Shown piece after piece: positions 7,845 to 43,444 of a DNA stretch of 48,357 nt. The position numbers were made by a program, and so were the translations under genes. Numbering within the stretch: position 1 is the stretch's first letter; every line of letters begins with the position of its first letter. The notes under the pieces were generated by a model. That model was not told the DNA's origin. It saw only the letters and a program-made list of their open reading frames with translations, and made no database searches. Source of the DNA: a bacterium (GTDB lineage: Bacteria; Patescibacteriota; Doudnabacteria; UBA920); contig JAKAGU010000001.1 of the NCBI GenBank assembly GCA_021825655.1, positions 1 to 48,357 on the forward strand. Reading direction: 5' to 3'.

Positions 7845-8168
7845 GAAGATTATTTAATAATTTAAGGCTAAACTATAGGGTTTTTATGTGATGTTCGACG
7901 CATCACGAGAATTTTACGCAATAAAAACTTGCCCCTTTTGGCTTATTTAAAAGGGTTTTTACTATTTAATTATTGACCGCGGAAAATTTTACCATTCGAG
8001 GCTTTTGTGCCCTAAAACAAACTGCCCTGGAAACCCCAATTTCCAGGCAAATTGTTTGTTAATTTTCCCGATTTTTACGCCTGAAGCGAGTCAAACCGGG
8101 TGGTACACGTTCATCCCCTAGTCGTGTAATGTGTATAGCTAATATACCAGTTCTTGAGCCTTTGTCAA
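7845..8168 (-). promoter_or_regulatory. rpoBC promoter and ~290-nt structured 5' leader
   Basis: Minus strand TTGACA (8168-8163)-16 nt-TGgTATATT (8146-8141); leader hairpins tacacg/cgtgta, cccggttt/aaatcggg, cctggaaa/tttccagg. Confidence 0.6.
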
Positions 8169-8237
8169 GTGCTTCAAATCTTGTAAATATTTCTTAAAAA
8201 TACTTGCCATGTGGATAACTTTATGATATAATTTAAT

Positions 8238-8302
8238 AAAGGTTCCAACCCCTCGATAAGAGCCCCCGGGCTCTTCCGCAAGGATAGAGGGGTTGGTCGT
8301 TT
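8238..8302 (-). ncRNA. DUF3800-associated structured RNA (three-way junction)
   Basis: Minus strand ccaacccctc/gaggggttgg closes two hairpins (tcc-ttgc-gga; agagcc/ggctct) immediately 3' of the DUF3800 stop; RNA motifs linked to DUF3800 genes are a known class. Confidence 0.7.
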
Positions 8303-8303
8303 T

Positions 8304-9035
8304 TTATTTATACTCATAGTACGTTGTAGTTCCTTTTCTAAATATTTCAAACTCCGTACCATCAACCCTATTTACTATCCTATTTTGGATGACGTTATAA
8401 GGTCTGATTTCGCCTCTTTCCCACTTAACGGCAACGGCCCAGCAACAATAATCAGCGAGTTGACAATTTAAGTCTGAACATGTTTGGTGGCAAAAAATTT
8501 CAAAAGGAATATTTTCAAAGTTGGTTTTTAGATACCTCTTTAAAGTACCTAAAATAACTTTCTTCTTGTCACCCACAAACAAAGAACCCAATACAACCAC
8601 AATCTTTTGCACCCCCGTTCCATTTCCTACAAAAATATATTTGAGCAAAGTTTTGCATAATTGTTGGTACAAACCGATCCCCGTTACCCTCTCGATAAGT
8701 TTGTCTTTTTTATAATAAACCTCTTTATAAAGAGAAGAGTGGGTTTTATTTTTTTGAGCAATAACTGAATAAATTTTGTAGGACTCACCCATTGAGGACA
8801 AAATTGCGTATACTTTGTCTCGAATTTTTTGTGCGTCCTCCGTGGCATGAAAATACTCATGGTCAACTCCTTCGGTCAATAAATCATATCGAAGTTTTAC
8901 TAATTCATCACGTTTAGTTATAGGGTCGTTTGTTACCAAACAAGTCAGTGAAAAAAATTTGGTCCCTTTTGGAGAAAAATCAAAATTTCCTGATTCATCT
9001 ATAAATAAAAATAGGGTTTTTGACTGTTCAGACAT
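8304..9035 (-). CDS. DUF3800 domain protein (RNase H-like fold)
   Basis: N-terminal FIDESG and C-terminal QLADY (QxxD) motifs; ATG at 9035 preferred over TTG at 9050. Confidence 0.85.
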   Translation of the reverse strand: MSEQSKTLFLFIDESGNFDFSPKGTKFFSLTCLVTNDPITKRDELVKLRYDLLTEGVDHEYFHATEDAQKIRDKVYAILSSMGESYKIYSVIAQKNKTHSSLYKEVYYKKDKLIERVTGIGLYQQLCKTLLKYIFVGNGTGVQKIVVVLGSLFVGDKKKVILGTLKRYLKTNFENIPFEIFCHQTCSDLNCQLADYCCWAVAVKWERGEIRPYNVIQNRIVNRVDGTEFEIFRKGTTTYYEYK

Positions 9036-9067
9036 CGAACTTTTGCTCAAAACATTTGAGGCTTTAG

Positions 9068-10165
9068 TTATTTCCCAGACTTCCTTCTATTATCTTCTTT
9101 ACACAACATTTGACAATTTTCGGCGATGGTCTTACCACCCTCATGCCAAGGTTTGATGTGGTCAGCCTCCATCTCTTCTATTTCAAAATGTTTACCACAT
9201 TTTGGACAAATGCCATCTTGCTGCTCATATTTAGCCCTTTTAATATCTTGGCCAAATACCCTTAAACTCAAAGGTTTTTCGTCTCCTGTTAAAATATATT
9301 CGTAAATGCCAGACTTTTTCTGGATTTCTTCATCAGACATCAAATCCTTTACCCGCTTCTCTATTTCTACTGGTTTATATTTATCGTGCTTATGTTCATT
9401 ATAGAATTCACCCCAATTTAAACCATCCATCTCCTTACGATAGACTGTAAATACACTTTTTATCCAATCAATTACATCATTAAAATATTCCCAAAGCTCT
9501 TTAGCATTTTCATCCTTGCGGTGCTGCGCCATATAACCTTGAGCATCACCACTGCTTATCCATTTGAGGGCTGTTGCTAAATAGTCTTGTCGTTCCACTG
9601 AACCATTTACATAATCTTTTCCAACTCCATATGCAGCACAGTTTGGTTTACTGAAATATTTTTTTGCATCTGCAAGCCACTTACCAGTATGGGTTGCATT
9701 TAGTGCTTCTTGTTCGTTAAGATTTTTACCTTTAATATTGATAGTTTTAAACCAGTCCAGTATCTCCCCCTCTGTACCTTCACAAACACATATATCCAAC
9801 TCGTAGTTCCTTATCCTCTCAAGATCATCAGAGAGCATCGTGTCTACATAAATCTTATTTTGGTCTTTGTCAAAAACGTAATATTGATGGTCAAGAAAAC
9901 GACAGATGGATAAAGTTCTTTGTTGACCGTCAAGTAACTCATACTCTCCTTTAGCAATCTGAACCCAATACATAATGTTTAGAGGGTGGCCCTTTAAAAC
10001 AGTCGCTATGACAGCCTGCTCATCCGGTATATCGTAAATAAACTCGCGTTGATAAGCTGGACGAATATCTAGTTTACCACCATAACCAACAACACCGTCC
10101 CAATCTTGATCCTTATAACCATAAAAAAGATCACTAACCTTTATGGTTTTGCGAAGAGTCTTCAT
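9068..10165 (-). CDS. DUF262 (GmrS/ParB-like) plus C-terminal HNH endonuclease; probable restriction partner of the MTase
   Basis: RPAYQREF and LLDGQQRT DUF262 motifs; CPKC...ADHIKPWHEGG..NCQMLC HNH; ATG at 10165 overlaps the MTase 3' end. Confidence 0.88.
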   Translation of the reverse strand: MKTLRKTIKVSDLFYGYKDQDWDGVVGYGGKLDIRPAYQREFIYDIPDEQAVIATVLKGHPLNIMYWVQIAKGEYELLDGQQRTLSICRFLDHQYYVFDKDQNKIYVDTMLSDDLERIRNYELDICVCEGTEGEILDWFKTINIKGKNLNEQEALNATHTGKWLADAKKYFSKPNCAAYGVGKDYVNGSVERQDYLATALKWISSGDAQGYMAQHRKDENAKELWEYFNDVIDWIKSVFTVYRKEMDGLNWGEFYNEHKHDKYKPVEIEKRVKDLMSDEEIQKKSGIYEYILTGDEKPLSLRVFGQDIKRAKYEQQDGICPKCGKHFEIEEMEADHIKPWHEGGKTIAENCQMLCKEDNRRKSGK

Positions 10166-11105
10166 TTTTCCCCTTTCTTTTAATAACAATCCTATCGAAT
10201 TTACGCTCAAATGTTCCATCACCATTAGCAATATAAAACCTCGCACCACCTTGCATATATGTTCCTTTAGGAGCCAGTTCTGACATCGGCCGGGCAAGCT
10301 CAAGACTTATTCCTAAAATTTCAAATTGGTCTGGATTGTATTTATCAAGAAAAGAGATGGGAACGCCCATGGCATCAAAATAATCTGATGGGATTTCTGC
10401 TGTCTTATCAACACTTATTGCATCATAGTTAATATATTTAGGGTATTTTTCTGGTACAAACTTTTCGTACAAAGGTAGTTCTTCATGGCGCTTTTTTACA
10501 TCAAGATTGGTCCACCACTGTACATTCCCAAGCTTCTCAATTTTATTTTGTGGATTAATAAATTCTTTTGGATTTACATACCCACCCCACATCTTATTAT
10601 CCTTAATATAAGGAAAAATTTCCTTATAAGTTATTGCATTTATAGGTCCGATGATTAAAAACTTTTTATTGTGACGCATCAGCTGGGCGATATATTCACG
10701 AAAAAGACTAAATGGCGGATTGGTACAGACAATATCAGATTCTTTCAACAATTCTATGCATTCAGGACTACGGAAATCGCCGTCACCTTTCAGGTCAATC
10801 TTTTGTAAACTATTCCTACCAGTAATTTCTAATCTGTAACCGTACTTTTTTACTGGGTCAAGTTGTCGAAATAAATCGGATTTAGAATAACGGGTACAAA
10901 CAAGCTTCTTAAGCCCAAAATGGTCAAAATTAAGTTTAAAAAATTCAGCAAACGCACTCTCAGCCGGATCATCACAATTACAATACACGACCTTATTTTT
11001 AAATTGTTCTTTGTAATAATTCAGCTCTCTCTGCACATCATCAAAACGAGTATAGAACTCGTCATTTTTAGCAGTTTTTGCAGATTGTAAGCTTCTATTC
11101 GCCAT
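10134..11105 (-). CDS. Adenine-specific DNA methyltransferase, EcoRI family
   Basis: AKTAKNDEFYT, VYCNCDDP, GDGDFRS.EC, TNPPFSLF, MGVPISFLDKYNP motifs. Confidence 0.92.
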   Translation of the reverse strand: MANRSLQSAKTAKNDEFYTRFDDVQRELNYYKEQFKNKVVYCNCDDPAESAFAEFFKLNFDHFGLKKLVCTRYSKSDLFRQLDPVKKYGYRLEITGRNSLQKIDLKGDGDFRSPECIELLKESDIVCTNPPFSLFREYIAQLMRHNKKFLIIGPINAITYKEIFPYIKDNKMWGGYVNPKEFINPQNKIEKLGNVQWWTNLDVKKRHEELPLYEKFVPEKYPKYINYDAISVDKTAEIPSDYFDAMGVPISFLDKYNPDQFEILGISLELARPMSELAPKGTYMQGGARFYIANGDGTFERKFDRIVIKRKGKNEDSSQNHKG

Positions 11106-11108
11106 GGT

Positions 11109-12044
11109 TTATTTCTTTTGATAATTGGATCCAAAAGTATAATCTGTTAATTCCGCCATTGTTTTTGACTTTTTTATATCTACCAACTTGTAATATCGAG
11201 GGCCGAAGAGGGAAAGTTCTGGATTTTCTCCTAGTATTACATGGTTTTCTAGTTCAATAATATTTCCGTCATGATGAATAATATATTTTGAGGGTTTTTC
11301 CGGATAAGGCTCTATTTTAACTACTTTTGCGTAATAGCGAATTGCGCTAACAGGCGCGCCTTCATACAGTCCAACATATTTTATTTTTGAAATATTGTCA
11401 TGACTTATACGTACCGCCCACCATGCACTCTTCTTTTCAAAAGCCATTTCCCGTCCATCGCCAGTTGCCGGACAAATTAGAGTATCAAACTCTCTTGTAT
11501 CTTTTTCCTTTTTTTCTTGTTTAATCTGTTCTGGCTCTGCGTTGTCTTCTCGTAACGGTTCAAAAAGGTTAAAACCAAGGGTTGATATTAATAATTCAAA
11601 GTCTTCAAACAGGTCAATAATTGAAGCTTGTTTAAATTCACCTAGATTATTCTGATTTGGGTTCGTCTTGTTTTGAACTTCGAACCTACCAACTTCAATT
11701 GCTTTATTTATTGCGTAAGATTCCAGGAATTTTACATCTGCCTTGTCCATACCTTCTGCTTGGGCAATACAAATAACAGCCCACTTCCAAAAACTCTTAT
11801 TTACTAAGTGGCCAATAACTCTATTTTTAAAATTTTCACTTTCACCGATATAAACAGTAGACCTCTCGTCATCAAAAAGCATGTACAAAGCCGGGGTAGA
11901 CAAATCCGGCCGTGATTGGATAAAGTCAATCTTATCTCTTGGCACGACATACACACGTGCAAGTGCGTTTAAGAGATTTGCAATCTTAACACCATCAACA
12001 TCCGAATCTTTCAAAAATATTTGTATTGTCCTTGATTTTGCCAT
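11109..12044 (-). CDS. GIY-YIG nuclease (DUF4357-associated type) with extra C-terminal domain
   Basis: ALYML..VYIGESEN..R..H and later LES/N residues; ATG at 12044 directly after the AbrB gene stop. Confidence 0.75.
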   Translation of the reverse strand: MAKSRTIQIFLKDSDVDGVKIANLLNALARVYVVPRDKIDFIQSRPDLSTPALYMLFDDERSTVYIGESENFKNRVIGHLVNKSFWKWAVICIAQAEGMDKADVKFLESYAINKAIEVGRFEVQNKTNPNQNNLGEFKQASIIDLFEDFELLISTLGFNLFEPLREDNAEPEQIKQEKKEKDTREFDTLICPATGDGREMAFEKKSAWWAVRISHDNISKIKYVGLYEGAPVSAIRYYAKVVKIEPYPEKPSKYIIHHDGNIIELENHVILGENPELSLFGPRYYKLVDIKKSKTMAELTDYTFGSNYQKK

Positions 12045-12045
12045 G

Positions 12046-12219
12046 TTATTTCTTCCAATCCTTAACCAACAACCCCCCTCTGACTTTCTTAACAAGAACT
12101 TTTTGCTTTTCGCGCCAGCGCAGCTTTTCCACCAATTCCACGGGCAAAGTCAGGCCCAACGAGGTTTTGCCCATTTTCTGGATTTTCCTAATGTTTTTCT
12201 CAGATTCTTTGCGGTTCAT
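12046..12219 (-). CDS. AbrB/MazE/SpoVT-family DNA-binding protein, 57 aa (not in ORF track)
   Basis: Hand translation MNRKESEKNIRKIQKMGKTSLGLTLPVELVEKLRWREKQKVLVKKVRGGLLVKDWKK; RK.QK.G.S..TLP swapped-hairpin signature. Confidence 0.85.
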   Translation of the reverse strand: MNRKESEKNIRKIQKMGKTSLGLTLPVELVEKLRWREKQKVLVKKVRGGLLVKDWKK

Positions 12220-12221
12220 AT

Positions 12222-12277
12222 ATAAATACGTATTTAAATACTAACTACATATTAATCCTGTTGTAGGCCTTTTGCAA
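12222..12277 (-). promoter_or_regulatory. Defence operon promoter and candidate operator
   Basis: Minus strand TTGCAA-17-TAATAT; palindrome TAAATACGTATTTA just upstream of the AbrB start. Confidence 0.5.
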
Positions 12278-12296
12278 AAACTGGCTCAAAATAGCC

Positions 12297-12320
12297 AAAA
12301 CCCCGCTTTCGCGGGGTTTT
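12297..12320. terminator. Intrinsic terminator
   Basis: aaaaccccgc-tttc-gcggggtttt. Confidence 0.85.
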
Positions 12321-12347
12321 GTGTACTAAGGTAGACCATTCAGCTAC

Positions 12348-12698
12348 TTACTCAAACAGCTTGCGTTTACGTTGACCACCTTCGAATGGAGTCTGCGACT
12401 CTTCAGGTTCGGGTGTTGGCTTAGACTTAGGCTCGACCACAGCCCGTGGCGCCACCGGATTGCTCCCTGTTGAATTTTTTCTCGTATTTGATTCGATCTT
12501 TTTTAATAAACCTATTGCTTCATTTATTTTCCAATACCATAAAACTATTTCACGAAAAACTAAAAAAACAACAACAATTATACACAGTATAAAAATTAAA
12601 GTAACAACTGACAAAGCGGCGGTGGATGATTGGTTTTGTACTGGATAAGAACCCCCTTCGTTAAAGGCTTGGGCAGTCAATATATTTAGATGGATCAT
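12348..12698 (-). CDS. Hypothetical single-pass membrane protein
   Basis: Hydrophobic VVTLIFILCIIVVVFLVF segment followed by REIVLWYWKIN; AT-rich. Confidence 0.7.
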   Translation of the reverse strand: MIHLNILTAQAFNEGGSYPVQNQSSTAALSVVTLIFILCIIVVVFLVFREIVLWYWKINEAIGLLKKIESNTRKNSTGSNPVAPRAVVEPKSKPTPEPEESQTPFEGGQRKRKLFE

Positions 12699-12714
12699 GA
12701 AATTTTTTATTTAA

Positions 12715-13284
12715 TTAATTTAAAATTTCGTTCACTAGATCCATAACCCCAATCCGCTTTTCCGCGGAATACGGCAGCACCTGGTAGTCGCCCACCGCAT
12801 CCTGGATGGCTTTCAGTTTTTTGTGGTATTCGGATTTTTTTAGCTTGTCCACTTTGTTGGCCAATATAACTACATTTTTGTCCGCCTGTTCCAAGCTATG
12901 GAGCATTTGCAGGTCTGTATCCGTAACCCCCACCACGGCATCTACAATCATAACCACTTTTTTCTGGCTGTAAGGCGAGCCCAGGAGGTACCAATAAATG
13001 CGCTGCTGGAGCAGGTTCTGCACGTCTTTGGACGCGCGGGCAAAACCATAACCCGGCAAGTCCACCAAGTAGACTTTGTTGTTTATAAGAAAAATGTTTA
13101 TTTCCTGGGTGTGCCCGGGAAAGGCGCTGGTTTTGGCCAAACCTTTTTTGCCTGTCAGAGAATTGATGACGCTGGACTTGCCCACATTGGACCGCCCAAT
13201 AAAAGCCACCTGGGGCATGCCATCATCCAAAAGCTCGTCTTCTCCTACTATCCCTTTTACAAATTTTGCCGATGTTATATTCAT
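12715..13284 (-). CDS. engB: Ribosome biogenesis GTPase YihA/YsxC
   Basis: GRSNVGKSS, DLPGYG, NKVD G-motifs. Confidence 0.95.
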   Translation of the reverse strand: MNITSAKFVKGIVGEDELLDDGMPQVAFIGRSNVGKSSVINSLTGKKGLAKTSAFPGHTQEINIFLINNKVYLVDLPGYGFARASKDVQNLLQQRIYWYLLGSPYSQKKVVMIVDAVVGVTDTDLQMLHSLEQADKNVVILANKVDKLKKSEYHKKLKAIQDAVGDYQVLPYSAEKRIGVMDLVNEILN

Positions 13285-19812: not shown

Positions 19813-20838
19813 TTATCTGCCCAAAAAACCGGCAGCCCGCCGCGCCAGCTTATAGAGCTGGTAGCCGGATTTTAATACGGGCAAGTCATAAGCGCCGGCA
19901 TATTCCCGCGTTTGCCCGCCAAAGCCGGACTTAAAACGCGCAAAGCCCGCGGCCTTGCCGGCCGCGGTTTCCAGGCCCCAAAAATCATACGTTTCCAGGC
20001 CCTTGGCTTTGGCATCCATTACTGCCTGCCAGTGCAGGGCATACGGCGCCATCACCTGTTTGTCTTCCTCAGCCGAGCCGCCAAACAAATAAGTGCGGGT
20101 GGGGCCGAAGTCCAGCATAATAGCCGAAGCCAAAAGCCGGCTATGGTACAAAGCTTTGTAGATACTCAAACTGACGCTGTGGGTCGGCGGATTTTTCCGG
20201 GCAAAAAAATCCACCATGTTTTCATAATATTTTTGGCCGTGGCCTTTATAGCCTTGCCTCTTGGCGGTTTCCACAATCAGCCCCACCGCTTCCTTATAAT
20301 ACAAGCCGTGGCCGGGGGTAATAGCCAAATCTTTCTGCACTTCCACGCCGTGCTTGAAAGCCAGCCGGATATTGTAGCGGGTCTTGGGGTGCATGTGCGC
20401 CAAAAGTTCGGCCTCCGTCTGATTAAGGTCCAAAACCAAGGTCTTGCCGGGCTGGATATTTTTAGTCTTACGCCAGGCCAGAGCCTCAGGCTTCCCGCCC
20501 AAGGCTGTTTTTGGTTCTATGCGGACAAACAGCGCCTCGGGATACTGGTTTTTAATTTCCGCCGCAAAGGCCGGCAAATATTCCGGACCGATTACGGGCC
20601 CGTATGGCGCATACCAATAGTGCCGGCCCAAAGGCAGCGGCATCCGGACCAGCTGGACTGCGCCCGCGGGGTTTTCTTTTTCTGTCTGCAAAAAATATCT
20701 GGCCACCTGCCGCCCCAAAGCCTTCTGCCACTCGCCCCAGTCCCAGCTCTGCAAAAAACTGCCGCTTGCGGCCCCGGCCACCAAGCGGTCGTATGCGGTT
20801 TTTTCAGTTGCGGGAATCAAAACTGGCTGCATGTGCAT
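19813..20838 (-). CDS. FemABX-family peptidoglycan peptidyltransferase (lipid II:amino acid)
   Basis: SFLQSWDWG, YAPYGP, KTRYNIR, YDFWG, FKSGFGG. Confidence 0.9.
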   Translation of the reverse strand: MHMQPVLIPATEKTAYDRLVAGAASGSFLQSWDWGEWQKALGRQVARYFLQTEKENPAGAVQLVRMPLPLGRHYWYAPYGPVIGPEYLPAFAAEIKNQYPEALFVRIEPKTALGGKPEALAWRKTKNIQPGKTLVLDLNQTEAELLAHMHPKTRYNIRLAFKHGVEVQKDLAITPGHGLYYKEAVGLIVETAKRQGYKGHGQKYYENMVDFFARKNPPTHSVSLSIYKALYHSRLLASAIMLDFGPTRTYLFGGSAEEDKQVMAPYALHWQAVMDAKAKGLETYDFWGLETAAGKAAGFARFKSGFGGQTREYAGAYDLPVLKSGYQLYKLARRAAGFLGR

Positions 20839-21396
20839 TTATGCCTTACCTAAAAATTTCAGCGCCTGTTTAATCTGCGCGCCGGAAGACAAGGCGGCAT
20901 CCACCTTGCCGATGACTTCCCTGACCTCGCGCTGCGAATAGCCCAGCGCCAAAAGCGCGTCGAACACCTCGCTGGACGACTTGGCGCCGGGAATATCCAG
21001 CGCGCCCACCTTATTTTTCAGCTCCACGATAATCTTTTCCGCGGTCTTGGTGCCTACGCCGGAAATCCGGGTAAAAATACCCGCGTCCTGGTTGGCAATA
21101 GCCTGGCGCACGGCATCCGCGCGCGCCGCGGACAAAATAGCCAAGGCCACTTTGGGCCCCACGCCGGAAACCGTTATCAGCATTTCAAAAAACTGCAGTG
21201 TGGCAAAGTCCGGCAAGCCAAACAAAGCCTGGCCGTCCTCGCTGACTTTCAGGTAGGTGTAAACCGCAACCACATCACCCAGGCGGGCTTCCAGAATTTC
21301 GGGCGTGACAAAAACCTTGTAACCCAGGCCGTTGTTTTCCAAAACCAGATACTGGGGAGCTTTCTCCAAAACTTTTCCCTTTAAATATGCGAGCAT
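20839..21396 (-). CDS. ruvA: Holliday junction branch migration protein RuvA
   Basis: MLAYLKG, VSGVGPKVA, GVGTKTAEKI, ALLALGY. Confidence 0.96.
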   Translation of the reverse strand: MLAYLKGKVLEKAPQYLVLENNGLGYKVFVTPEILEARLGDVVAVYTYLKVSEDGQALFGLPDFATLQFFEMLITVSGVGPKVALAILSAARADAVRQAIANQDAGIFTRISGVGTKTAEKIIVELKNKVGALDIPGAKSSSEVFDALLALGYSQREVREVIGKVDAALSSGAQIKQALKFLGKA

Positions 21397-21417
21397 TTAT
21401 ATGGCTTTATTTCCTTC

Positions 21418-21468
21418 ATCTTACCAATTCTGAAACTGATTGACAAAAGTGCGTGTAAAAAGTACTAT
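21418..21468. promoter_or_regulatory. Overlapping divergent sigma70 promoters (ruvA on -, structured RNA on +)
   Basis: +: TTGACA 21440-21445, 17 nt, TACTAT 21463-21468; -: TTGTCA 21446-21441, 17 nt, TAAGAT 21423-21418. Confidence 0.75.
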
Positions 21469-21474
21469 GCCTGT

Positions 21475-21900
21475 ACTCCAAACCCTGCTCTGGACTTGAA
21501 GTTTGCGGAGCTTTGCTCCGTTTTGCCCACACAGGGGATTAAAGGCTCTTTGCCGATTGGCAAACATTAAAGAGGGTTTCGTTTCCGGGTGGAAACACGC
21601 AGCGCCGTCCGGCGCTGCCAGACAAGCGTAAGGCTTGAGGCCTTTATTGGCTCTCGCTAAAATGCTTGCGTTCCCACCCCCGGGTGGCGTGAGTTGTGTT
21701 GCTCCTTGCACATGCGCGATTAAGTTCGCCTACGCCACCCGTACCCATCTTGGGTGCCACACTCCCAGAGGCCTCCGACTCTGAGACTGCGGCCACGGGG
21801 TCCTTCCCCGCCCAAGCACTTCCCCGCTTGCTCCTCCGGCGACGCGGAAGTGTTTACAGAAGGCCGCGGTCTCCTCCGGATCCGGCCTTCTCTTTTTTTT
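21475..21900 (+). ncRNA. Unassigned ~420-nt highly structured RNA (sRNA or uvrB leader)
   Basis: No credible ORF; about ten helices, with G-U wobbles in at least five of them on the + strand; promoter upstream; terminator agaaggccg/cggccttct plus T8 at the 3' end. Confidence 0.75.
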
Positions 21901-21928
21901 GCCTTTCTTTGGTGTTAAACTTTACTTT

Positions 21929-23950
21929 ATGAACCGTTTTGCTTTAAAAAGCAGCTACCAGCCGGCCGGGGACCAGCCCCGGGCCATCCAGCAGCTCCTC
22001 GCCTCCCTTAAGGCCAAAAACCGCTATACCACGCTTTTGGGCGTGACCGGCAGCGGCAAGACTTTTACTATGGCCAACGTGGTGGAAAAAATTCAAAAAC
22101 CCACGCTGGTTATTTCCCACAACAAGACCCTGGCTGCGCAGCTGGCCGCAGAATTTCAGGAATTTTTTCCGGACAGCGCCGTGCACTATTTCGTTTCCTA
22201 CTATGACTACTACCAGCCCGAAGCCTACATCCCCCGCTCCGACACCTACATTGAAAAAGAAACCCAGATTAACGAGGAAATCGACCGCCTCAGGAATGCG
22301 GCCACCCAGTCGCTCTTAACCCGCAAGGACGTGCTGATCGTGGCTTCCGTGTCCTGTATTTACGGCTTGGGCGACCCGGCCAACTATCTGGACCTTTCGT
22401 TTAAAATCGAATTGGGCCAAAAGCTCAAGCGCGACACCTTCCTCCGCCGCCTCACCGATTTGCAGTACCACCGCAACGACCTGGATTTACAGCGCGCCAC
22501 TTACCGCGTGCAGGGCGACACGATCGAGATTATCCTCTCCTCCGAGGACACCATCATCCGGACGGAAATGTTCGGCGACGAGGTGGAAAAAATCGAACGC
22601 CTGGATGCGGTCAGCGGCCACCGCCTGGAAAGCCTGAAAGAGTTTACCATTTTCCCGGCCAAACATTTTGTGGCGCCCGAAGAAAAAACCAAGCTGGCCA
22701 TTGAATCCATCCGCACGGAACTGGTTGAACGCTTGCGGGAGCTTAAAGCCCAAAACAAGGTTCTGGAAGCCGCCCGCCTGGAGCAGCGCACCAATTTCGA
22801 TTTGGAAATGCTTTCCAACACCGGCTTTGTGGCCGGCATTGAAAACTATTCCCGGCACATGGACGGGCGGCCTCCCGGCCAGGCGCCCTCCACCCTGATT
22901 GACTACTTTCCCGACGACTTCCTGCTGTTTATTGACGAGTCGCACCAAACCATCCCGCAAATCGGGGCCATGTACGAAGGCGACCACTCCCGCAAAGCCA
23001 CACTGATTGACTACGGCTTCAGGCTGCCGTCGGCTTTTGACAACCGGCCTTTGAAATTTACCGAGTTTGAAAAGAAAATCAACCAGGCCGTGTTTGTGTC
23101 CGCCACGCCCGGGCCCTGGGAAATTCAGCACTGCCTCAGCCAGCATAAAGATGCCGCGAAGGCCAAAGCCACCATAGTGGAACAGATTATCCGCCCCACC
23201 GGCCTGATTGACCCCACTATTGAAATTAAGCCCATAAAAAACCAGGTGGACGACCTGGTGGAGAGAATCAAGCAGCGGGTGGCCAAAGGCCAGCGCGTGC
23301 TGGCCGCCACCCTGACCAAGCGCATGGCCGAAGAACTGACCGAATATTTGACGGAAGAAGGGGTAAGGGTCCAGTACATCCACAGCGACGTGGACACGTT
23401 CGAGCGTCTGGAAATTTTGCGCGACCTGCGCTTGGGTGTTTATGACGTGCTGGTGGGTATTAACCTCCTGCGGGAAGGCCTGGATTTGCCCGAAGTCTCT
23501 TTGGTGGCCATCCTGGATGCGGACAAAGAAGGCTTTTTGCGCTCGGAGACTTTTTTCATGCAGATGATGGGCCGGGCGGCCCGCCATTTGGAAGGCCACG
23601 TGGTCATGTACGCGGACCGGATGACCGGCTCAATGCAGCGGGCCATTGAGGAAACCACCCGCCGCCGGGAAATTCAGGCCGCCTACAACCAAAAGCACCA
23701 CATTACGCCCCAGGGGATTATGAAAAAAATCGCGGACACCCGCCTGACCGGGGCAAAGCAGGAAGAAGCGCCGGCACCGGATGACCGGGATGTCACGCAA
23801 ATGGACGCGCAGGAAGTGAAGTACTACGTGGCGGAACTGGAAGAACAAATGGATCTGGCGGCCAAAAACCTGGAATTCGAACTGGCCGCGCGCCTTCGGG
23901 ACAGGATTGAAGAAGTAAAAAAACTCCGGCGCCTCAAAGGCAAAAAATAA
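21929..23950 (+). CDS. uvrB: Excinuclease ABC subunit B
   Basis: GVTGSGKT, YYDYYQPEAY, DESH, GINLLREGLD, C-terminal UVR domain; ATG 21929 follows TGtTAAACT. Confidence 0.97.
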   Translation: MNRFALKSSYQPAGDQPRAIQQLLASLKAKNRYTTLLGVTGSGKTFTMANVVEKIQKPTLVISHNKTLAAQLAAEFQEFFPDSAVHYFVSYYDYYQPEAYIPRSDTYIEKETQINEEIDRLRNAATQSLLTRKDVLIVASVSCIYGLGDPANYLDLSFKIELGQKLKRDTFLRRLTDLQYHRNDLDLQRATYRVQGDTIEIILSSEDTIIRTEMFGDEVEKIERLDAVSGHRLESLKEFTIFPAKHFVAPEEKTKLAIESIRTELVERLRELKAQNKVLEAARLEQRTNFDLEMLSNTGFVAGIENYSRHMDGRPPGQAPSTLIDYFPDDFLLFIDESHQTIPQIGAMYEGDHSRKATLIDYGFRLPSAFDNRPLKFTEFEKKINQAVFVSATPGPWEIQHCLSQHKDAAKAKATIVEQIIRPTGLIDPTIEIKPIKNQVDDLVERIKQRVAKGQRVLAATLTKRMAEELTEYLTEEGVRVQYIHSDVDTFERLEILRDLRLGVYDVLVGINLLREGLDLPEVSLVAILDADKEGFLRSETFFMQMMGRAARHLEGHVVMYADRMTGSMQRAIEETTRRREIQAAYNQKHHITPQGIMKKIADTRLTGAKQEEAPAPDDRDVTQMDAQEVKYYVAELEEQMDLAAKNLEFELAARLRDRIEEVKKLRRLKGKK

Positions 23951-24946: not shown

Positions 24947-25534
24947 ATGTCGAAACTACTGCCCGCGCTTCTTGTACTCGCAGCCGCTGCCCCGGCTCAA
25001 ACCCTGGTTACCGCAGACACCCTGGGCCAGGGCAAGTTTTCCGGTTTTGCTGCCACAAACGCCCTGCGGGTTAAAGGCTTCACCACTTTGGGCCTGTCTA
25101 TGGCTCAGGTGTGGTACGGCGCCACGGACCGTGCCGATGTCTTTGCCGGAGCCAGCGACACAGTGGCTTTCGGCCAACACCAGGCTGCGCTGATGGCTGG
25201 CGGCAACCTGAACCTGCTGAAAACCAAGCAGGTGTCGGTTTCCACTTTCCACGCGCTGTCCGTCCCCCTTACCCGGCGGGAAGACGCCTGCGGCCTCTCG
25301 TGGTTCGCCGCTGTCGTGGCCAGCCGAAGCTTCGGCAAACTGACCGCCTACACAGGCTACAGCGCCACGATCCCGCTGGGCAATACGGCGGACAAACTGT
25401 TTACCCCGGCTCAAACCGTGCACAATGTGCCCCTGGGCGTCTTTATTCCCAAAGGCAAGTGGGGTTTGTTCGTAGAATATGACTACGGCCCCAGAGTGCA
25501 GGCAGTCGGCGTAGGCATGAGCTTTACCCCATAG
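24947..25534 (+). CDS. Secreted beta-barrel-like protein 1
   Basis: Signal peptide MSKLLPALLVLAAAAPA/Q; alternating amphipathic strands; C-terminal AVGVGMSF resembles a beta-signal; strong SD. Confidence 0.7.
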   Translation: MSKLLPALLVLAAAAPAQTLVTADTLGQGKFSGFAATNALRVKGFTTLGLSMAQVWYGATDRADVFAGASDTVAFGQHQAALMAGGNLNLLKTKQVSVSTFHALSVPLTRREDACGLSWFAAVVASRSFGKLTAYTGYSATIPLGNTADKLFTPAQTVHNVPLGVFIPKGKWGLFVEYDYGPRVQAVGVGMSFTP

Positions 25535-42837: not shown

Positions 42838-42870
42838 AGCCGGTATGGAAAATTCCATACCGGCTTTTTT
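42838..42870. terminator. Bidirectional terminator
   Basis: agccggtatggaa/ttccataccggct followed by tttt. Confidence 0.85.
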
Positions 42871-43444
42871 AGAGCAGCCACCGTAACCCGACCAGCGGCG
42901 TGAGGGAGCCGCTTTTCCAGAGCGGGGCAAACCACAGCTTAAACGGGGTGTGGGGCAGCGCCAGCTCAAGCTTGGGTCCGGTCCCTTTAGCGGCTTCAGT
43001 CAGCGTACCAAGGCCAAGCTTGGCTGTAACCTGGCAGTTGGTTTCCACTTTATACCAGAAACCGCTGCCGCCGTCTTCGAACACCGCGAGACCGGAAACC
43101 CGGCCCTTGCCAACCCACACGTAAGAGCCGATACGGGCCGGATGCTTGTCCTCCTCCAGTCCGCCGCCCAGGGCAAGCTGCACCCAAGGCTGCGGGCTAT
43201 AGGTTGCACCCGCGTATGCCTGGCTATAGCCTTGCTGCACCTGGAACCAGACAAAACTGCCCAAGCTGCCCTTTACCGGCTTGGTGAGCAGGCCGTCAAT
43301 CCGGGGAGTTGCGTTGCCGCCGGAAAAATAAGTGCGCTCTTCCACCCAATTTTGGCCAAATGCCAATCCTGCCAAGAGCAGCGTAAATGCGGCCAGTTCC
43401 CCAACCGTCAACGCCAACCGAGCTTTCAGTGACTGTTTTACCAT
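42869..43444 (-). CDS. Secreted beta-barrel-like protein 3
   Basis: Signal peptide ..FTLLLAGLAFG/Q; alternating strands (YAGATY, VQLALGGG, IGSYVWV, FWYKVE); C-terminal LVGLRW; SD AAGGAGG. Confidence 0.7.
   Translation of the reverse strand: MVKQSLKARLALTVGELAAFTLLLAGLAFGQNWVEERTYFSGGNATPRIDGLLTKPVKGSLGSFVWFQVQQGYSQAYAGATYSPQPWVQLALGGGLEEDKHPARIGSYVWVGKGRVSGLAVFEDGGSGFWYKVETNCQVTAKLGLGTLTEAAKGTGPKLELALPHTPFKLWFAPLWKSGSLTPLVGLRWLL

Follow-up and report, generated by a model that had tools for sequence, protein, structure and literature searches.

A probable fast-evolving structured RNA gene between ruvA and uvrB in a subclade of one Patescibacteria family

What is encoded in several hundred nucleotides (nt) of DNA that separate two divergent repair genes in a compact genome, and that carry no recognizable protein-coding gene? 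To our knowledge, the non-coding RNAs of the Patescibacteria (Candidate Phyla Radiation) are almost unexplored; in genomes of less than 1 Mb, any 400-600 nt of non-coding DNA that has been kept probably matters. The stretch considered here, called the window throughout, comprises 48,357 nt of a bacterium from the Doudnabacteria lineage (GenBank assembly GCA_021825655.1, contig JAKAGU010000001.1). It corresponds to C6:1-48357 of a genome that we call G000 (838,113 bases in 23 contigs, rated 100% complete). Between ruvA and uvrB, an earlier note made from the letters of this window had picked out a + strand unit and read it as an RNA with many loops complementary to the Shine-Dalgarno (SD) sequence. 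In our analysis, 21475-21900 (+ strand) is very probably a real, stand-alone structured RNA gene of about 425 nt. We assign it to an undescribed, fast-evolving RNA lineage that occurs in one subclade of a single Patescibacteria family only, between the back-to-back ruvA promoter and uvrB. A part in the control of translation is a possible function, and we weigh it below against several others.

A separate unit with a conserved fold

The unit is separate, structured, non-coding and under selection for its fold. Its promoter (21440..21468, + strand) combines TTGACA at 21440-21445, a 17-nt spacer and TACTAT at 21463-21468, with 10 of 12 consensus matches; a promoter scan of 21300-22000 gave three promoter-like sites, as compared to 0.1 in shuffled sequences. 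The inferred transcript of about 425 nt (21475..21900, + strand) takes its 5' end from the -10 element and its 3' end from a run of eight T. This run (21893-21900) belongs to an intrinsic terminator (21858..21900, + strand) with an outer stem (21858-21866/21883-21891), an inner helix and the loop UCCUCCG (21872-21878). An RNAfold-based scan assigns -21.3 kcal/mol to the 45 nt preceding the T run; a simple terminator scan missed the site because its loop limit is 3-8 nt. The open reading frames (ORFs) overlapping 21440-21900 are all unsupported and encode 42-96 amino acids (aa). None of the five overlapping ORFs tested matched a Pfam family above the cut-off (one gave a 14-bit chance match), and the alignment with the congener described next contains many indels that are not multiples of three. 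The earlier description of an ORF-less stretch, opening with TTGACA-17-TACTAT and closing with a hairpin and T8, is borne out by the promoter scan, the RNAfold-based scan and the ORF and Pfam checks, and its reading as a separate + strand unit by the unit's own promoter and terminator.

The predicted + strand fold has a minimum free energy (MFE) of -187.2 kcal/mol (z = -6.26), and 0 of 100 shuffles were equally stable. The fold of the - strand is of similar stability (z = -5.89), and so fold energy by itself does not assign the strand. A second sequence is provided by G002, a genome of the same genus and the sole match among 41 related genomes in a blastn-type search, with the same ruvA-X-uvrB arrangement. 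The two sequences share 69% of their letters at positions 130-461 and 83% in the promoter part. They do not differ in the 50 nt holding the RNA-gene promoter and the divergent ruvA promoter; their 5' thirds cannot be aligned, whereas the remaining two thirds, on the 3' side, give a good alignment. No match to the RNA gene was found in the third genome of the genus, G001, which is 69% complete.

The RNAalifold consensus of the G000 and G002 sequences contains 106 pairs in 20 helices; 20 of the pairs differ between the species at both bases and 18 at one base. In controls with the 3' partners slid by 1-3 columns, 0-2 double-changed pairs were seen and 38-48% of the cells were paired, rather than 100%, and none of 500 column shuffles of the alignment reached the observed pairing values. 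The comparison is generous, since the structure was derived from the same two sequences, though the margin is large. Read on the + strand, all 208 of 208 cells are paired, 23 of them as G-U; when the same helices are read on the - strand, 185 of 208 are. This G-U pairing, together with the promoter and the terminator, fixes the + strand. Thus the argument that G-U pairs favour the + strand, made in the earlier note from one sequence, holds with two, and the stems do covary with the single sequence homologue.

Near-identical contigs from four DNA runs of other studies add strain variants only. Three of these are compatible with the + strand fold: 21627 C>T turns C-G into U-G, 21658 T>C turns G-U into G-C, and 21869 G>A turns G-U into A-U. 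Apart from two changes considered with the counter-evidence below, the other strain changes are at unpaired consensus positions. The exception in scale is run X7, where 21483-21558 (76 nt) is swapped for 75 unlike letters with the joint at 21482/21559, and so the 5' domain is exchanged even between strains. A 20-mer had 0 matches in metagenome contigs and one in genome contigs (the G002 record), and a promoter 24-mer had 0 matches in metagenome contigs.

Read from 5' to 3' on the + strand, the first domain of the RNA is this hypervariable one (21483..21558), which is not alignable with G002. It is followed by an AU-flanked, SD-like purine box, CAUUAAAGAGGGUUU (21565..21579, with GAGG at 21572-21575), the element best kept across genera. 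A multi-stem junction (21587..21679) is enclosed by GGGUGG (21587-21592) and CCACCC (21674-21679) and contains the hairpins 21599-21618 and 21623-21668; it comprises helices 8-11, and six of its pairs are double-changed between G000 and G002. Helices 12-14 (21682..21740) consist of the invariant 8-bp helix GGGUGGCG/CGCCACCC around two hairpins, the first with the loop UGCUCCUU (21700-21707), which is GUCCUCCG in G002. Next is the invariant 25-mer CAUCUUGGGUGCCACACUCCCAGAG (21746..21770), identical in G002; a search of 95 family genomes that allowed up to three mismatches found it in G000 and G002 only. Helix 16 is a short hairpin (21766..21785) with the loop GCCUCCGA (21771-21778; ACUCCGA in G002). 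The hairpin AAGCACUUCC/GGAAGUGUUU (21814..21855) holds CUCCUCC in its apical loop (21831-21837), where G002 has CUCUCCUC, and its stem shows compensatory changes between the two species when the alignment is read by eye. The terminator stem is helix 20, with three pairs changed on both sides, and both promoter and terminator are conserved in G002.

Several helices had already been named in the earlier note. Among them, 21599-21618, approximately 21682-21689:21733-21740, and 21814-21823:21846-21855 are present in the two-species consensus; 21783-21794:21862-21873 is absent from it. This last helix, of 12 bp, appears in the MFE structure of the single sequence, where it sequesters the 5' arm of the terminator and competes with the terminator.

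Does the RNA belong to a family that is already described? The whole window gave 0 matches to Rfam 15 (4227 models) at the gathering score. A permissive search (E<=10) of the 701 nt from 21300 to 22000 gave 10 chance-level matches, the best with 15.7 bits (E 0.34, cut-off 80). ARAGORN found no tRNA or transfer-messenger RNA (tmRNA) in the window, Rfam searches on the loci of 20 relatives returned five tRNA matches only, and those on three other ORF-less units of G000 brought nothing that identifies the target. RNase P RNA (RF00010) and tmRNA (RF00023) are ruled out: their matches in G000 are found elsewhere, at C13:45088-45418 (129.9 bits) and C8:21149-21537 (114.9 bits), respectively, and neither model matched at the locus. 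The models of signal recognition particle (SRP) RNA (RF00169, RF01854) had no match in G000 at E<=10, and searches for an Ffh M domain and an SRP54 GTPase found neither. For 6S RNA (RF00013), the best matches in G000 scored 13.2 and 9.7 bits at other loci, with a cut-off of 46.4, and there was none here. The RNAIII family (RF00503) was rejected for want of an Rfam match and of a supported ORF (hld would be expected), and a CsrB/RsmZ-type sponge was rejected because the loops carry UCC, not GGA, and CsrA (PF02599) was not found in G000. The view that this is not RNase P RNA, tmRNA, SRP RNA or 6S RNA, reached in the earlier note by the lack of hallmarks, therefore agrees with the model searches, in which no family was matched. 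A literature search, which did not extend to supplementary files, found no description of an RNA at this locus or of a Patescibacteria RNA of such a kind; the available parts of PMC8321541 and PMC10768705 have no bearing on an RNA at the locus.

The same site across the family

If the nucleotide sequence leads no further than one congener, the site itself can be followed. RuvA was found in 39 of 41 relatives, and in many of them uvrB is the divergent neighbour. The ruvA-uvrB gap is 73-142 nt in a sister family and 450-1300 nt in the present family. Within the latter, uvrB was located in 90 of 95 genomes and 86 upstream regions were fetched; 79 of these and two loci from genus g1 were oriented (n=81), seven of the 86 being left out because they had no tblastn match to a short uvrB piece. 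The divergent neighbour is ruvA in 37 of the 81 regions, and in 32 of the 37 the gap is at least 450 nt.

We defined a unit by TTGAC[AT], 16-18 nt and TAnnnT, then a hairpin of -10 kcal/mol or below and at least five T. Such promoter-to-terminator units are present in 27 genomes of 13 genera. They are 194-1023 nt long and ORF-poor, and all 27 are oriented towards uvrB and end 30-100 nt before it. Seven of the 32 long gaps failed the strict promoter or terminator patterns (G003, G073, G006, G016, G059, G061 and G062); by eye, that of G016 contains a promoter close to the consensus. Once the terminator was removed, the fold z-score was below -2 in 25 of the 27 units (median -5.1), compared to 3 of 23 adjacent ruvA coding controls (median -0.4); tRNAs inside some units add to the scores of those units. 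The units of G068 and G041 fold no better than shuffles, and each has an SD-led ORF (128 and 54 aa, respectively) that is likely to be protein-coding. In at least five genomes, tRNA genes follow the promoter and precede the rest of the unit: L059 937-1100 (G048), L138 822-891 (G066), L054 1103-1178 (G060), L071 417-492 (G064) and L032 (G004).

The genera that bear units are those with the UvrB proteins closest to that of G000. In genera g20, g17 and others, a different gene adjoins uvrB and there is no unit at that place. A signature scan, requiring a promoter, no ORF of 70 aa or more and a strong terminator, listed six units in G000, of which the target is the only one with an SD-like box. 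The same scan of the complete genome G087 (g20) listed one unit, without a box, a signature result that does not prove absence. The unit bodies are unalignable across genera, even between species of genus g3, and MAFFT on the junction hairpins of G079, G085 and G019 yielded 13 pairs only, too poor for a cross-genus model. Common descent of the 27 units is thus a hypothesis, based on their site, orientation, promoter layout and short shared motifs.

The flanking genes are as follows. ruvA (20839-21396, - strand) has RuvA_N, HHH_5 and RuvA_C domains. The gene beyond it (19813-20838, - strand) is a FemAB-family gene (139.6 bits), not ruvB. uvrB, with its ATG at 21929 (+ strand), has UvrB_inter, UvrB and UVR domains. 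According to the promoter scan, the divergent ruvA promoter (21418..21446, - strand) reads TTGTCA-17-TAAGAT with TG ahead of the -10, and its -35 overlaps the -35 of the RNA-gene promoter. On the other side, outside the RNA, uvrB has its own extended -10, TGTTAAACT (21913-21921, + strand), which is kept in G002. It lies past the terminator, which argues for separate transcription of uvrB; as it stops 7 nt before the ATG, the uvrB mRNA may be leaderless. A -10 (TGnTAnnnT or TATAAT) is found near the uvrB ATG in many family genomes, including genomes that do not have the unit. Direct repeats of CTTTATACT-like words stand between terminator and uvrB in L064, L061, L073, L054 and L087 (G068, G080, G081, G060 and G020) and are a candidate operator for a repair regulator. 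Farther away, a low-GC island at window positions 8000-13000 (0.36-0.41 versus about 0.55 elsewhere) extends across several - strand ORFs and may be acquired DNA.

Two other units of G000 deserve mention. An ORF-poor unit at C12:83521-83945 (- strand, L193) is also 425 nt long, with the same promoter type, a strong terminator and an MFE of -181 kcal/mol. G001 has the unit at 92% identity and G002 has part of it at 72%; it gave no Rfam match at E<=0.1. Paralogy with the target was rejected, the 9-mer UUAAAGAGG being all that the two have in common. An ORF-less unit of 236 nt at C7:12364-12599 (- strand; L194 626-793) has a sub-threshold match to the AdoCbl riboswitch (37.9 bits versus a cut-off of 50, E 0.00019).

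Shine-Dalgarno-like motifs and possible functions

What might the RNA do? Chosen after the sequences had been viewed, and with counts that are somewhat flattering for that reason, the box pattern is present in 20 of the 27 units, compared to four on the reverse complement and a mean of 3.2 (maximum 9) in 300 dinucleotide shuffles. The form TAA[AG]GAGG is found in 13 of 27, with 0.4 expected, and the anchored consensus across units is cAAuaUUAAaGAGGAuUu. No conserved start codon or ORF follows the box among the units, and a coding reading by way of short ORFs behind it was rejected since start, frame and length vary. An internal SD:anti-SD helix was also rejected as a general feature: the best duplex that the box forms elsewhere in its RNA is no stronger than with shuffled sequence (median z 0.08), and 1 of 22 is below -2. 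Pairing with the 3' arm of the terminator and the U tract is among the partners of the box in G000, G002, G069 and G078, and by eye G083 could pair likewise. The predicted unpaired probability is 0.67 for the AU part and 0.18 for the GAGG core. In G079, G085 and G019, the box is followed directly by a GGGC...GCCC helix enclosing two hairpins, by eye analogous to 21587-21679 of the window. A search of the genome for a target complementary to the G000 box returned scattered chance matches only.

The opposite half of the SD interaction recurs as well. CCUCC is found 40 times in the 27 units as compared to 21.8 expected (z = 4.2), and CUCC is enriched with z = 6.0; GGAGG is likewise enriched (z = 3.6). 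Within the last 45 nt before the T run, CCUCC is present in 10 of 27 units, versus 4.1 expected and a maximum of 9 in 300 shuffles. The CCUCC sites have a mean predicted unpaired probability of 0.53, compared to 0.39 overall. Among the 12 consensus hairpin loops of G000, seven contain UCC (shuffle mean 1.34) and four contain CUCC (mean 0.36), with 0 of 1000 shuffles reaching either value. Three of the 12 loops of G002 have UCC (P = 0.195, not significant) and three have CUCC (P = 0.005).

These motifs stand in a genome that hardly uses SD sequences. For G000 the assembly contains only part of the 16S gene; in three family genomes the 16S 3' tail is GGAUCACCUCCUUUCUA, which contains the canonical CCUCCUUUCUA. 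GGAG or GAGG is found at -18..-5 of 8% of 606 long ORFs of G000 (first start), versus 7% in a control window, and GGAGG at 3% versus 1%. The genome is indeed SD-poor, and SD-bearing mRNAs are thus a small special set. Candidate genes with AAGGAGG or CGGAGG ahead of the ATG include those at window positions 24947 and 42869. Both (24947-25534, + strand; 42869-43444, - strand) have AAGGAGGA before the ATG, hydrophobic N-termini and no Pfam family, and by eye several candidate SD-bearing genes of G000 resemble exported or membrane proteins. As a separate observation on protein export, neither the SRP54-type GTPase (PF00448) nor the Ffh M domain (PF02978) nor SRP RNA was found in G000, in which SecY was found; Ffh/FtsY-type P-loop, DTAGR and TKxDG motifs were absent from its open frames of at least 150-200 aa. 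PF00448 matched 0 of 81 sampled Patescibacteria genomes at E<=1e-10 and 14 of 14 control genomes, and the bacterial SRP RNA model scored above its cut-off in 0 of 31 relatives.

Because the recurring motifs are both halves of an SD/anti-SD pair, action on translation is the most likely kind of action. We tentatively favour a riboregulator of translation that acts by SD/anti-SD-type pairing, a reading that is possible without being probable. The RNA would be a regulator acting in trans. Its exposed CUCC and CCUCC loops, copies of the CCUCC core of the family 16S 3' tail, would pair with GGAGG-type ribosome-binding sites of the rare SD-bearing mRNAs and block 30S loading there. The AU-flanked box may be a self-masking partner, or else a second interface towards the ribosome. 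The C-rich loops of Staphylococcus aureus RNAIII and RsaE/RoxS and of Listeria LhrC pair with ribosome-binding sites and block translation.

A number of results weigh against this reading. The element best conserved is SD-like, the opposite of an anti-SD, and the mechanism explains it only secondarily. The six UCC loops of the earlier note are all loops in the consensus, and UCC and CUCC are over-represented in G000, but only three of the six keep CUCC in G002 (21700-21707, 21771-21778 and 21831-21837). It is lost from the GUCC loop, from the loop at 21801 and from the terminator loop, which reads GCCUUUA in G002. The proposal of the earlier note, a multivalent anti-SD RNA, is partly supported. 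A wider pyrimidine motif lacks strand bias (15 units on the RNA strand, 17 on the complement), and no preferred base was seen after CUCC, such as the CCUCCG that would suit CGGAGG-type SDs. The covariation comes from two sequences, with a single sequence homologue, and a few strain variants, among which 21614 G>A and 21879 G>A each break a predicted + strand pair. Sequence searches did not connect the units: nhmmer with a two-sequence profile on 30 loci beside ruvA found nothing beyond g1, and an all-against-all blastn of the gaps recovered flanks (promoter and terminator), tRNAs and a few short internal blocks only. The covariance model R1, which was built on G000 and G002 and has 123 positions and 28 pairs, was searched against 88 sources (166,675 nt) and matched only those two genomes, the next score being 8.8 bits (E 3.1). 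At the site itself the gap is 20-278 nt, with the unit missing or short, in G075 (20 nt), G065, G063, G013 and G084. Since the unit is lost or short in several species, and since none was found by signature in G087, it is dispensable. Finally, there were no RNA runs among the 17 public sequencing runs carrying the stretch.

Several other explanations can be set beside the riboregulator. With the box as its functional core, the RNA may be an SD mimic or decoy: the box would bind the free 30S anti-SD tail or an SD-recognising protein as a sponge or stand-by platform, and the structured domains would give stability and block initiation. We consider this somewhat unlikely. It would explain why the box is concentrated on the RNA strand, well beyond shuffles, with neither a conserved start codon or ORF behind it nor an internal complement beyond chance, and why its AU part is predicted to be unpaired; a canonical 16S tail in a genome with rare SDs is also consistent with it. 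In G048, the box comes directly after two co-transcribed tRNAs (tRNA-Lys last) and could therefore become the 5' end of a processed RNA, and the 9-mer shared with the second 425-nt unit of G000 would be a further instance. Against these points, approximately half of the boxes are AAAGAGG-type, at about -6 kcal/mol with the 16S tail rather than the -10 to -12 of AAGGAGG types, and the GAGG core is mostly predicted to be paired. The search of G000 for CsrA, which is the classic protein that binds SD sites and has RNA sponges, was negative, the pattern was picked post hoc, and the binding is a prediction. An alternative with a similarly modest chance of being right is a structural or scaffold RNA, part of a ribonucleoprotein of unknown kind or self-assembling, in which the fold matters and the motifs are incidental or form tertiary contacts. 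The fold scores of 25 of the 27 units suggest as much, as do the invariant 25-mer and 8-bp helix within the genus, the strong, constitutive-looking promoter, the co-transcription with tRNAs that is typical of stable RNAs, and the presence of a second large structured unit in G000. Known scaffold and catalytic RNAs, however, keep a conserved core, whereas here not even species of one genus have bodies that can be aligned, the units vary in length from 194 to 1023 nt, a 76-nt piece was exchanged between strains, and several species have lost the unit or carry a shortened one. There is also no linked partner protein gene, the neighbours being ruvA, the FemAB-family gene and uvrB.

The uniform aim of all 27 units at uvrB, ending just before it, brings up a cis-acting leader or attenuator, in which the promoter would be the ancestral uvrB promoter and the terminator would be disabled by the helix 21783-21794:21862-21873. 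The short ruvA-uvrB distance in other families is in keeping with this, and the MFE structure prefers the terminator-sequestering helix, 10 of whose 12 pairs persist in G002 when the alignment is read by eye. We nevertheless regard it as quite unlikely: the hairpin with T8 is strong, uvrB has an extended -10 beside it and a -10 family-wide whether or not the unit is present, several species carry tRNA genes within the unit, and uvrB does without the unit in G075 and others. Nor is there a ligand-type conserved core or an Rfam riboswitch match. That the stretch is functionless, a fast-turnover spacer between divergent genes or a remnant of inserted DNA with chance signals, is very unlikely. Extreme sequence turnover, presence that varies within genera, the segment swapped between strains and the lack of RNA runs among the 17 speak for such a spacer. 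Yet this is a compact genome of 0.84 Mb, 106 pairs have been preserved through compensatory changes at 69% identity, 25 of 27 units have much lower fold scores than coding controls, 13 genera repeat the consensus promoter and strong terminator, and the box is strand-specific. A very divergent housekeeping RNA of 6S or SRP type, missed by the Rfam models, is extremely improbable, although the slots are formally empty since neither RNA was found in G000. Among models of such RNAs, the 701 nt matched at E<=10 only Metazoa_SRP, on the - strand with 10.4 bits; the RNA is twice as long as 6S RNA, a rod of about 185 nt; there would be no partner for an SRP RNA, as no Ffh M domain or SRP54-type GTPase was found; and RNAs of this kind are neither hypervariable nor dispensable.

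A more speculative idea, to which we give little chance, joins both motifs: these would be hypervariable, clade-specific RNAs aimed at the ribosome as a kind of 'pseudo-mRNA', the box capturing the idle 30S anti-SD and the loops capturing rare SD mRNAs, and together they would gate a special translation channel. Its context is a genome with almost no SDs, in which many SD mRNAs appear to encode exported proteins, in a group where no SRP54-type GTPase was found in 81 genomes. As a variant, the fast-changing 5' domain may adapt the RNA to targets in the host bacteria of episymbionts.

Significance and comparison with known systems

The locus offers a testable case, with a strong promoter, a very stable fold, compensatory evolution and one site in 13 genera. 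The turnover of the RNA sequence outpaces sequence searches and the covariance model R1, and both halves of the SD interaction recur in an organism that hardly uses SDs. If the RNA does act on ribosomes or SD-bearing mRNAs, it would show how SD-poor bacteria partition translation; if it has another function, structural studies would still gain a large RNA of a new class.

The closest analogy is with RNAIII, RsaE/RoxS and LhrC. RNAIII is about 514 nt long and embeds the peptide gene hld, and the loop motif of RNAIII, RsaE and LhrC is UCCC. By analogy, the present RNA resembles this class in having multiple hairpins, its own strong promoter and terminator, and pyrimidine loops that include the terminator loop. 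Rapid sequence turnover outside the motifs is a further likeness. Exposed pyrimidine loops beyond chance, which mark the class, are found here (UCC in 7 and CUCC in 4 of 12 loops of G000, CUCC in 3 of 12 of G002). It differs in that the motif is CUCC or CCUCC, with no Rfam match, no hld-like gene and no quorum-sensing locus nearby, in that the host is a Patescibacterium nearly without SD-led genes, and in its conserved SD-like purine box, which is no defining feature of those RNAs.

CsrB and RsmZ are also structured RNAs with repeated motifs related to ribosome-binding sites, and the GGA box (AAAGAGGA / AAGGAGGA) resembles a CsrA site. Here, however, the repeated loop motif is UCC, there is usually one purine box per RNA, and neither CsrA nor an Rfam match was found. 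OLE, GOLLD, ROOL and raiA RNAs are similar in being stand-alone genes of several hundred nt, with an intricate multi-helix fold and a function that is not evident from context; they have conserved cores and Rfam models, whereas no such model matches here and no core can be aligned across genera. With 6S RNA, RNase P RNA, tmRNA and SRP RNA, which are abundant and stable, the unit shares a strong promoter and apparent stability, and some of those RNAs are likewise co-transcribed with tRNAs.

A parallel of another kind is found in the Bacteroidia. As described in the available parts of PMC7797042 and PMC13000453, their ribosomes are SD-blind, and a single strong SD on rpsU serves in bS21 autoregulation. 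Both groups keep a canonical 16S anti-SD while most genes do without SDs, and under such circumstances the rare strong SD-like sites are likely to be regulatory. The SD is on an mRNA in the Bacteroidia, whereas here the SD-like box is in an ORF-less RNA. Taken as a multi-loop riboregulator, the RNA between ruvA and uvrB stands out by size, host phylum, rate of turnover and the SD-like box.

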